Shown piece after piece: positions 58,264 through 61,510 of a DNA stretch of 64,000 bases. The position numbers and the translations under genes were made by a program. How positions within the stretch are numbered: the first letter of the stretch is position 1; the number at the start of each line of letters is the position of its first letter. This stretch comes from Escherichia coli. Lineage in GTDB: Bacteria > Pseudomonadota > Gammaproteobacteria > Enterobacterales > Enterobacteriaceae. Under the pieces are notes generated by a model that saw nothing but the letters and a program-made list of their open reading frames with translations, made no database searches and was not told the DNA's origin. The stretch lies in the NCBI RefSeq assembly GCF_003018255.1, contig NZ_CP027440.1. One strand, given 5' to 3'.

Positions 58264-61038
58264 CAGTTAACGGCGGTGGTGTACCCGGACGGGCTGGAGA
58301 GCAGCCGGGCATATGATGAGCTGGACAGACTGGTATCGGAGACATCGCGCAGCGGGGAGACAGTACGCTACCGCTACGATGACGTGCACAGTGAGTTACC
58401 GGCGACGACAACGGATGCGACGGGCAGCACCCGGCAGATGACCTGGAGCCGCTACGGGCAGTTGCTGGCCTTCACCGACTGCTCGGGCTACCAGACCCGC
58501 TATGAATACGACCACTTTGGTCAGATGACGGCGGTCCATCGTGAGGAAGGCATCAGCACGTACAATACCTATAACCCGCGCGGCCAGCTGGTCAGCCGGA
58601 AAGACGCACAGGGCCGTGAAACGCGGTATGAATACAACGCCGCAGGCGACCTGACTGCCGTTATCACCCCGGACGGCAACCGGAGCGAGACACAGTACGA
58701 TGCGTGGGGAAAGGCGGTCAGCACCACGCAGGGCGGGCTGACGCGCAGTATGGAGTACGATGCTGCCGGACGTGTCATCAGCCTGACCAACGAGAACGGC
58801 AGTCACAGCGACTTCAGCTACGATACGCTTGACCGGCTGGTACAGCAGCGCGGCTTTGACGGGCGGACGCAACGTTATCATTATGACCTGACCGGAAAAC
58901 TCACGCAGAGTGAAGATGAGGGGCTTGTCATCCTCTGGTACTACGATGAATCGGACCGTATCACTCACCGCACGGTGAACGGCGAACCGGCAGAGCAGTG
59001 GCAGTATGATGGCCACGGCTGGCTGAGAGAAATCAGCCACCTGAGCGAAGGCCACCGTGTTGCCGTCCACTATGGCTACGACGATAAGGGCCGTCTGACC
59101 GGGGAGCGCCAGACGGTGGAGAACCCGGAGACGGGGGAACTGCTGTGGCAGCATGAGACGAAACAGGCATACAACGAACAGGGGCTGGCAAACCGCGTCA
59201 CGCCGGACAGCCTGCCGCCGGTGGAGTGGCTGGCCTATGGCAGCGGTTATCTGGCGGGCATGAAGCTGGGCGGGACGCCGCTGCTGGAGTACACGCGCGA
59301 CCGCCTGCACCGGGAGACGGTGCGCAGCTTCGGCAGCATGGCAGGCAATACAGCCGCATATGAACTGACCAGCACTTACACCCCCGCAGGCCAGTTACAG
59401 AGCCGGCACCTGAACAGCCTGGTGTTTGATTGTGACTATAACTGGAATGACAACGGCGACCTGATGCGCATCAGCGGCCCGCGACAGACGCGGGAATACG
59501 GCTACAGCGCCACGGGCAGGCTGGAGAGCGTGCGCACCCTCGCACCGGACCTGGACATCCGCATCCCGTATGCCACCGACCCGGCGGGCAACCGGCTGCC
59601 GGACCCGGAGCTGCACCCGGACAGTACACTCACAGTGTGGCCGGATAACCGAATCACCGAAGACGCGCACTACCTGTACCGTTACGATGAATACGGCAGG
59701 CTGGCGGAGAAGACGGACCGCATCCCGGCGGGTGTGATACGGACGGACGACGAGCGGACCCACCACTACCACTACGACAGCCAGCACCGCCTGGTGTTCT
59801 ATACGCGGATACAGCATGGCGAGCCACTGGTCGAGAGCCGCTACCTTTACGACCCGCTGGGCCGCCGGACGGGTAAACGGGTGTGGCGTCGCGGGCGTGA
59901 CCTGACAGGATGGATGTCGCTGTCGCGTAAACCGGAGGAGACGTGGTACGGGTGGGACGGCGACAGGCTGACGACGGTGCAGACTGACAGCACGCGTATC
60001 CAGACGGTGTACCAGCCGGGAAGCTTCACACCGCTCATCCGCATCGAAACAGACGTGACCGAACTGGAGAAAGCGCAGCGGCGGAGCCTGGCGGAGAAGC
60101 TCCAGCAGGAAGGGAGCGAGGACGGACACGGCGTGGTGTTCCCGGCTGAACTGGTGCGGCTGCTGGACAGGCTGGAGGAAGAAATCCGGACAGACCGCGT
60201 GAGCAGTGAAAGCCGGGCGTGGCTTGCGCAGTGCGGGCTGACGGTGGAGCAACTGGAAAAACAGGTGGAGCCGGAATATACACCGGCGCGAAAAGTTCAT
60301 CTTTACCACTGCGACCACCGGGGCCTGCCGCTGGCGCTTATCAGCGAAGACGGCAATACGGTGTGGAGCGCGGAGTATGATGAATGGGGAAACCTGCTTA
60401 ATGAGGAGAACCCGCATCATGTGTATCAGTCATACCGTCTGCCGGGGCAGCAGCATGATGAGGAGTCGGGGCTGTACTACAACCGGAACCGGTACTACAA
60501 TCCGTTGCTGGGACGATATATTACTCAGGACCCGATTGGGCTGGCGGGGGGATGGAGTCTGTATGCGTATCCGCTGAATCCGGTGAATGGTATTGATCCA
60601 TTAGGATTAAGTCCTGCAGATGTAGCGTTAATGCGAAAAAAAGAACAATTAAACCATCAAAGAGCATGGGATATATTATCTGATACTTATGATGATATGA
60701 AGAGATTAAATTTAGGTGGGACTGATCAATTTTTCCATTGTATGGCATTTTGTCGAGTGTCTAAATTAAATGACGCTGGTGTTAGCCGATCAGCGAAAGG
60801 GCTGGGTTATGAAAAAGAGATTAGAGATTACGGGTTAAATATGTTCGGTATGTACGGCAGAAAAGTAAAGTTATCCCATTCTGAGATGATTGAAGATAAT
60901 AAAAAAGACTTGGCTGTAAATGAACATGGGTTGACATGTCCATTAACACAAGATTGCTCAAATAGATGTATTGATTATATTAATCCAGAGCATAAAAAAA
61001 CGATAAAGGCTTTACAAGATGCTGGCTATCTCAAGTAA
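58264..61038 (+). pseudogene. rhsD: Rhs protein, C-terminal part (YD-repeat core, PxxxxDPxGL motif, variable C-terminal toxin domain 60610..61038)
   Basis: YD repeats (YRYD, YEYD...), motif [11 protein letters not shown] at 60580-60609, then abrupt drop to AT-rich sequence encoding a 143-aa tip. Confidence 0.85.
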
Positions 61039-61510
61039 CATCTCAAAGATGGTAATATTTATTTTTGCTATTATAATCGTTGTTTTTTTATGCGTGACTA
61101 CTTATCTTTATTTACACAAAGATGAATCTCTTGTAAGTAAGCATTACATAAACTATATGGCAATACCAGAAAGTGATGGGGTTTTTACATGGCTCCCAGA
61201 TTTTTTTCCGCACGTAGCGGTGGATATATCAATATCCACAAATGTAGAAGATGATTATTTTTTTTCTTATTTTTCCCTAACAATCGATGATGGGGGGAGG
61301 TTTAAGAAAACATTGACTGTGAGGGCCAGGGAACAAGTGGCGAAAATCGTATCAGAGAATGATCCAGATACAAAAAAAGTGTGGTGTAAATATGGTAAAA
61401 TACCAGGGCAAGGGGATAGCGTAAACCTTTTTTTTGTTGGTGAAATTAATGTTACGCATTATTTTATAACAAATATTGGAGCTGGGTTACCTGATGCTTG
61501 TGCAGAGTAA
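61019..61510 (+). CDS. Candidate Rhs immunity protein (163 aa; N-terminal hydrophobic helix)
   Basis: ORF overlaps the last 20 nt of the rhs toxin tip, is AT-rich like the tip, and occupies the position immunity genes take in Rhs modules. Confidence 0.55.

Follow-up and report, generated by a model that had tools for sequence, protein, structure and literature searches.

A serum amyloid A-like Rhs tip and its membrane-anchored partner YbbD at the rhsD locus of Escherichia coli

What does the AT-rich 3' end of an rhs gene encode, in which compartment of a target cell would its product act, and what is the small gene that overlaps its stop codon? We address these questions at the rhsD locus of Escherichia coli, in a 64,000-nucleotide stretch of contig NZ_CP027440.1 (RefSeq assembly GCF_003018255.1; hereafter the window), where a GC-rich Rhs core is followed by a compositionally different C-terminal tip and by an open reading frame (ORF) of 163 residues. 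A preliminary description, made from the letters alone, had read this arrangement as a swapped Rhs tip with a candidate cognate immunity gene directly 3' of it, and had assigned neither product to a known family or fold. The comparative evidence presented here backs the former view and replaces the latter, as the tip can be identified with high confidence as a serum amyloid A (SAA)-like domain, of the prok-SAA family in the Lipocone superfamily, and its partner as YbbD. Taken as a whole, the tip is probably a periplasm-acting Rhs toxin of the T6SS (type VI secretion system) kind that is directed at lipid head groups and blocked by membrane-anchored YbbD.

Both the SAA likeness of the tip (2020) and the prok-SAA Lipocone class (2025) are already published, and the two genes are annotated in K-12 as ylbH and ybbD. 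The first of these studies, carried out in silico on enterohaemorrhagic E. coli EDL933, reported a structural similarity between the C-terminus of RhsD (z0651) and human SAA1 and identified PF00277 in seven PAAR-Rhs proteins of O157:H7; it read the SAA likeness as host-directed and proposed that RhsD 'could auto-aggregate' (PMC7216683). The RhsD tip encoded at the same locus of O157:H7 Sakai is 93% identical to that of the window. The Lipocone superfamily was defined by Burroughs, Nicastro & Aravind in 2025, who consider 'prok-SAA' to be the bacterial ancestor of animal SAA and list it as one of several Lipocone families that have been taken up as tips of polymorphic toxins, T6SS being one of the routes of delivery (bioRxiv 10.1101/2025.01.14.632903).

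Homology of the tip to serum amyloid A

The tip comprises 142 residues, one fewer than previously given, which are numbered here from S1 at position 60610 and end at the stop codon 61036-61038. The switch to AT-rich composition right after the Rhs motif, remarked upon earlier, is confirmed in 200-nt windows (from ~0.6 to ~0.35), with GC fractions of 0.55-0.67 over 58300-60599 and of 0.31-0.39 over 60600-61799. A Pfam scan with the single tip sequence identifies SAA (PF00277) with an E-value of 3.2e-4, and at E<=0.001 this is the sole Pfam match, no nuclease, deaminase or other cytoplasm-acting toxin family being returned at that threshold; an NCBIfam scan of the tip gave no match. Peptidase_C7 (Pfam E=0.03-0.04) was dismissed as weak. 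A phmmer search of the tip against PDB sequences likewise places SAA chains at the top, through the motif AWD..Y.DM...N..G.D.(F/Y)FH. Because a word-indexed protein search initiated with the tip recovered only close E. coli and Hafnia relatives, an exhaustive search (E<=1e-3) was run in which five close tips made up the profile and 1.84 billion cluster representatives the database. It retrieved 116 proteins, nearly all of them matched at the C-terminal end of longer proteins, and in the 12 homologues whose upstream sequence was inspected (267-1,935 residues) an Rhs motif of the DPxGL type precedes the tip, homologues from other taxa included.

In a family alignment of 56 representatives with a mean identity of ~29%, D39, H43, C44, C48, E70, D100, N104, G107, C116 and C120 are invariant, and M30, D73 and D96 are conserved at >=90%; the His and Cys positions of the tip, called conserved in the preliminary description, are thus invariant in the family. 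Pfam SAA is matched individually by 40 of the 56 members (E<=0.001, best 2e-26). The 56-member profile, searched against all PDB chains, finds SAA structures with an E-value of 2.4e-16 and nothing else significant, and hhalign aligns the family profile to human SAA1 with a probability of 98.7%. A profile built from close E. coli-type tips alone still aligns to human SAA1 through the same motifs (E=8.7e-5), so that the link is not an artefact of profile drift. The conserved residues H43, E70, D73, D96 and D100 of the tip align by hhalign to H37, E63 and D75/D79 of human SAA1. Foldseek also ranks SAA structures first when queried with a low-confidence model of the tip, with an E-value (0.75) too weak to be used alone.

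The inferred ancestral active site of the Lipocone superfamily comprises a His on helix 2, a Glu on helix 3 and an Asp on helix 4; an acidic residue closes helix 3, and helix 4 further bears a polar residue and a Gly cap (bioRxiv 10.1101/2025.01.14.632903). The invariant H43, E70, D100, N104 and G107 and the near-invariant D73 and D96 fit this site, their placement on individual helices resting on the low-confidence structure model of the tip. The SAA-Wnt clade within the superfamily is characterized by the motif sNxxG(R) (bioRxiv 10.1101/2025.01.14.632903); the tip reads VNEHGL at this position, where N104 and G107 are invariant and a Leu stands for the Arg in a column that is not conserved.

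YbbD and the conserved toxin/partner pairing

The 163-residue ORF was located correctly in the preliminary description, at 61019-61510; its overlap with the rhs stop is 20 nt long, and the same ATG is the annotated start in RefSeq for DETEC-S792, a strain described as 100%-identical whose intact rhs (L001) serves here as the comparison allele. NCBIfam NF011298 matches the ORF over its full length (1-163) with 373.4 bits against a cut-off of 326, and Pfam PF26610 (YbbD_head) is precomputed on a 99%-identical YbbD cluster; the Pfam copy used for the profile search of the ORF did not return PF26610. Ac76 (Pfam E=0.53), which spans the transmembrane (TM) helix alone, was dismissed. The hydrophobic N-terminal helix noted earlier is borne out by a segment of 19 residues that averages 3.03 on the Kyte-Doolittle scale, and the AlphaFold2 (AF2) model of YbbD (pLDDT 80) has a TM helix at residues 6-32, a 'head' at residues 38-86 made up of a strand, a short helix and two strands, and a C-terminal half of two helices followed by three strands. 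A two-helix hairpin followed by three β-strands, together with homology to BamE, characterizes the BamE-like Lipocone immunity proteins (Imm-BamE); a comparison of YbbD with BamE by hhalign gave no match. In the literature searched, we found nothing on ybbD in connection with Rhs and immunity, nor on PF26610/YbbD_head.

The pairing of tip and partner was examined on the contigs encoding seven tip homologues (L003-L009), in addition to E. coli. On all seven, the tip is directly followed, on the same strand, by a gene or ORF for a protein of 143-173 residues with an N-terminal hydrophobic anchor or a lipobox, and these partner genes often overlap the rhs stop. TM-anchored partners are found on L003, L006, L008 and L009 and lipobox-bearing ones on L004, L005 and L007, so that with E. 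coli all eight partners examined have a TM anchor or a lipobox, in keeping with the earlier suggestion that the N-terminal helix hints at a membrane or periplasmic site. PF26610 (YbbD_head) is detected on three of the seven partner proteins. A W-x-P-D-F-x-P-x-S..I motif just past the anchor is common to the partners, and the Cys pair C123/C161 of YbbD recurs in the partners of E. coli, L003, L006 and the Xanthomonas type. The tip homologues on L003-L005, L008 and L009 come from metagenome-derived contigs, and relatives of the immunity protein are present in Xanthomonas. YdcD, the partner of a neighbouring Rhs in DETEC-S792, was considered as a relative of YbbD and dropped from the YbbD alignment because it belongs to a separate NCBIfam family (NF050020).

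Two further loci are of note in this connection. On L006 (1808-5683), which is from a 4.8-Mb genome, an orphan SAA-like tip and a partner with YbbD_head lie within an array of orphan modules that also holds an Ntox16 fragment and a TseH with Imm58. In DETEC-S792, upstream of the rhs with the SAA-like tip, a second Rhs (L001 478-1462) ends in a different tip (…DAMRHCYLMCRMTK…NHE…DLKNNTVGIACG…CSDAC…), with the pattern H-C-x3-C ... N-x2-G-x2-C ... C-x3-C as in the SAA-like tip and with the overlapping, TM-anchored YdcD directly 3' of it. The second tip may be another Lipocone toxin of the SAA/Wnt clade.

Within E. coli, the 901-nt module of tip and ybbD is present in 2,861 of 5,426 complete genomes (53%), mostly with >=95% identity, once per genome and nearly always on the chromosome. 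K-12 is one of its hosts, and others were isolated from water or from animals, both wild and domestic. The pair is not a chance pair of ORFs, and few Rhs tips of E. coli are commoner than this one. The partner gene exists in two forms that differ in a homopolymeric tract: the window and DETEC-S792 have a run of eight T residues (T8, at 61258-61265), and K-12 MG1655 and O157:H7 Sakai have T7 (at L002 ~9880 and L010 ~36475), upon which the reading frame shifts and YbbD ends at residue 86, just past the 'head'. Both forms are common: the cluster of intact ybbD has 1,365 member sequences and that of the 86-residue form (P0153) is represented on at least 1,000 contigs. Slippage could underlie the T7/T8 difference, as could phase variation; alternatively, immunity may require no more than the head domain.

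Possible mode of action and its alternatives

Every Lipocone immunity protein is a TM protein or a lipoprotein, and TelC, the sole Lipocone toxin to have been tested, cleaves lipid II and is active outside the cytoplasm only (bioRxiv 10.1101/2025.01.14.632903). Cleavage or exchange of phosphate-linked lipid head groups has been predicted for the family and demonstrated for TelC and PTDSS1/2 (bioRxiv 10.1101/2025.01.14.632903). Against this background we hypothesize that the tip would be packed inside the Rhs shell, released by a cut at DPxGL and carried by a type VI secretion spike into the periplasm of a neighbouring cell, where a pocket formed by His43, Glu70, Asp73, Asp96, Asp100 and Asn104 might attack a phosphate-linked lipid head group. 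By comparison with TelC, the likeliest targets would be undecaprenyl-(pyro)phosphate-linked intermediates of the cell wall. The two CxxxC pairs, C44/C48 and C116/C120, would probably form disulfides that need the oxidising periplasm, and YbbD would be held by its one N-terminal helix in the inner membrane, with its alpha/beta domain in the periplasm to bind and block the tip. Of the components of this scheme, the periplasmic action of the tip is reasonably likely, and its lipid-head-group chemistry, for which the argument is by analogy, is proposed tentatively, at somewhat less than an even chance.

Several observations weigh against this scheme. No experimental work on any prok-SAA toxin was found in the literature searched, because of which the substrate of the tip, and even its toxicity, are extrapolated from TelC. 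TelC belongs to a different Lipocone family that lies beyond the reach of the tip family profile in the PDB, where SAA entries alone were significant and a relation to TelC was not recovered. The clade motif of the tip (VNEHGL) is without the Arg of sNxxGR. No vgrG, eagR or T6SS gene adjoins the locus, ybbP being directly upstream, and since the match of the Rhs N-terminus to PAAR is weak (E=0.1) and T6SS genes are absent from the neighbourhood, the delivery route is assumed. Moreover, O157:H7 Sakai encodes a full-length RhsD with an intact tip beside the 86-residue YbbD, a combination that is awkward if self-protection takes full-length YbbD; either immunity needs no more than the TM helix and head, or this strain does not deploy the toxin, or it has no need of self-protection.

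The tip could instead be a non-enzymatic, lipid-binding or membrane-perturbing helical bundle that harms the envelope by binding or aggregation, with YbbD sequestering it. For animal SAA, a binder of lipids, retinol and OmpA that is able to assemble into fibrils, no catalytic activity has been demonstrated (bioRxiv 10.1101/2025.01.14.632903), the proposal that RhsD 'could auto-aggregate' (PMC7216683) points in the same direction, and a membrane-anchored immunity protein fits any target in the envelope. What speaks for an enzyme is that D39, H43, E70, D100 and N104 are strictly invariant in the 56 representatives and that the same positions constitute the proposed Lipocone active site; an invariant polar set amid ~29% identity is typical of a catalytic pocket and not of a binding surface. 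We therefore regard a purely binding function as unlikely. The idea of a host-directed effector that mimics human SAA to modulate inflammation or chemotaxis, which is how the SAA likeness of O157:H7 RhsD has been interpreted (PMC7216683), is very improbable: the tip is always accompanied by a rapidly diverging, membrane-anchored partner directly 3' of it, the signature of an antibacterial toxin and its immunity protein, the module is carried by 53% of the complete genomes of E. coli, among them those of K-12, of water isolates and of isolates from wild and domestic animals, and occurs in commensal, laboratory and non-clinical strains, its homologues occur on metagenome-derived contigs with relatives of the immunity protein in Xanthomonas, and animal SAA is inferred to descend from bacterial toxins rather than the reverse (bioRxiv 10.1101/2025.01.14.632903). 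That the tip acts in the target cytoplasm with the YbbD helix being incidental, as the precedent of most characterised E. coli Rhs tips (nucleases, deaminases) and of most experimentally tested E. coli Rhs C-terminal tips (Rhs-CTs), which are nucleases or a metallopeptidase (PMC6730261), would have it, is just as improbable, given that the tip matches no cytoplasm-acting toxin family in Pfam or NCBIfam, has four invariant cysteines in two CxxxC pairs and is paired with a membrane-anchored or lipoprotein partner in every case examined.

We return to the proposed periplasmic toxin directed at lipid head groups. A specific form of this proposal, which we consider rather doubtful, is that the tip is a working periplasmic Lipocone phosphoesterase acting on undecaprenyl-linked intermediates or on a phospholipid head group, with YbbD as an undescribed immunity family for such toxins; YbbD would then possibly confer immunity through its TM helix and 'head' alone, as in the 86-residue allele of O157 and K-12. 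If true, the ancestral biochemical activity of the SAA fold would be directly testable in E. coli and the T7/T8 tract of ybbD could switch immunity. While little is added here as discovery, the practical value of the locus lies in offering a tractable organism for the first biochemical test of a SAA-fold toxin, with natural intact and frameshifted immunity alleles and with main-gene and orphan arrangements of the module at hand in E. coli.

The rhsD locus and its relatives

The locus runs from ybbP (52635-55049) through the start of rhs, an insertion sequence (IS), the remainder of rhs and the 163-residue ORF to a short remnant of an Rhs N-terminus, a ylbG fragment, mnmH/selU and allS. Coordinates of the features discussed are collected in Table 1.

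Table 1. Features of the rhsD locus in the window
Feature	Position	Strand	Basis
rhsD-type gene, 5' part, cut by the IS (PAAR-like stretch at the N-terminus, DUF6531 and the first RHS repeats)	55478..56933	+	alignment, Pfam
IS3-family insertion sequence (orfA 58232-57807, orfB 57849-56968) interrupting rhs	56934..58263	-	ORFs, imperfect inverted repeat, flank mapping
GC-rich Rhs core, 3' part (YD-shell repeats as far as the demarcation motif)	58264..60576	+	alignment, GC
Rhs core/tip demarcation motif, DPxGL self-cleavage region	60577..60609	+	read from sequence
AT-rich toxin tip of 142 residues, SAA-like (prok-SAA Lipocone) domain	60610..61038	+	Pfam, profile searches, alignment
ybbD, intact 163-residue form (N-terminal membrane anchor and alpha/beta domain), candidate immunity protein	61019..61510	+	NCBIfam, PF26610, synteny, AF2
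Rhs N-terminus remnant, K-12 pseudogene ylbI (ISGKPAARQGDMPQYGGPIVQGSAGV...)	61877..62014	+	translation vs Rhs start at 55478, K-12 annotation

The 5' part of rhs shares 97.9% identity with the intact rhs of DETEC-S792 (L001 3437-4883) and matches DUF6531 (E=5e-18) and RHS_repeat (E down to 5e-7) in Pfam; the weak match to PAAR_motif is at residues 3-20. The 3' part of the core is 98.5% identical to L001 from 4865 onward and 92.5% identical to the core of K-12 rhsD, and for the Rhs core as a whole the identity to annotated RHS element core proteins amounts to 92-98%, the RHS/YD repeats that form the shell being present. The combination of a DPxGL motif with a compositionally different, variable tip is also found in this Rhs, and in K-12 a different tip (rhsD-CT) follows the same Rhs core. 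The preliminary description had recognized the demarcation motif and begun it one codon late, at 60580.

Alignment to the intact allele of DETEC-S792, in blocks covering 55478-56933 and 58264-62600 of the window, confirms that the delivery gene is broken by an IS, as had been stated. The element interrupts rhs at about codon 485, its exact ends being ambiguous to within a few bases; copies of it elsewhere are annotated as IS3 family transposase, and among 5,426 complete genomes of E. coli none has the same insertion in rhs. On either side of the element, at 56915-56933 and 58264-58282, stands a direct repeat of 19 nt, cagttaacggcggtggtgt, which is much longer than the target duplications of 3-5 bp that are usual for the IS3 family. 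The IS takes the N-terminal loading and delivery part out of the reading frame, and therefore the toxin of the window can no longer be loaded or delivered and is most likely silent. Expression from an internal start, which had been put forward as an alternative, is unsupported by a consensus promoter and terminator scan of 58000-61800: no promoter-like site on the plus strand was seen in or just upstream of the tip, and the sole such site lies far upstream in the core, at 58856-58884; such a scan is weak evidence, its overall counts being near the shuffled expectation. If the precedent of TelC holds, a tip without a signal peptide would be harmless in the cytoplasm. The intact ybbD, if transcribed, could continue to guard the cell against this toxin when it comes from other strains.

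The module occupies two kinds of position at this locus. Fusion to the main rhs, without an rhsD-CT/ybbC pair, is seen in the window as well as in DETEC-S792 and O157 Sakai; in K-12 the module is the orphan pseudogene pair ylbH/ybbD, 3' of rhsD-CT and ybbC. This additional K-12 pair lies between the core and the module (L002 7998-9194 versus window 60363-60609), and ylbH opens with a repeat of 210 nt of the core. A recombination or displacement event at this 210-nt repeat sets the one arrangement apart from the other, in the usual pattern of C-terminal displacement and orphan formation at Rhs loci. Further downstream, the Rhs remnant repeats the start of the rhs at 55478 almost exactly, with ATT for ATG and with a Shine-Dalgarno-like GAAAGAGGAA just upstream of it. 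Between the remnant and mnmH, on the minus strand, is a fragment of a ylbG-type helix-turn-helix (HTH) protein (62025-62432). RefSeq calls it an incomplete HTH-domain protein in DETEC-S792 (L001), whereas in K-12 and Sakai its label is putative DNA-binding regulator.

The nearest known counterparts are O157:H7 RhsD (z0651 / ECs_0560) and K-12 ylbH-ybbD, which occupy the same chromosomal locus (ybbP ... mnmH/allS). The tip of the window is on the main rhs, as in O157, whereas that of K-12 is the orphan pseudogene ylbH; unlike both, the window has an IS-broken rhs and an intact, 163-residue T8 ybbD in place of the 86-residue T7 frameshift form. With prok-SAA domains (PF00277) in general, the tip shares profile homology, the conserved His, Glu and Asp residues, the N-x-x-G motif, the position at the C-terminus of an Rhs protein and a membrane-anchored partner encoded 3' of it. 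The E. coli subfamily differs from prok-SAA at large in being divergent (E=3e-4 for the single sequence), in having Leu for the Arg of sNxxGR, in a C-terminal extension (CP...C......GYLK) and in having YbbD as its partner. TelC of Streptococcus intermedius, according to the Lipocone paper a member of the same superfamily, is an antibacterial toxin active outside the cytoplasm only, whose immunity protein TipC acts at the outer face of the membrane, and it serves as the mechanistic template here; it differs in belonging to the prok-TelC family, in its delivery by a type VII secretion system of a Gram-positive bacterium and in showing no sequence match to the tip profile in the PDB search. Animal SAA1 and SAA3 share with the tip the helical bundle and the motifs A-W-D..Y.D-M...N..G-x-D-x-(F/Y)-F-H and D-x3-D-x2-A-N-x2-G, but are secreted acute-phase apolipoproteins that have no cysteines, no Rhs carrier and no immunity partner.

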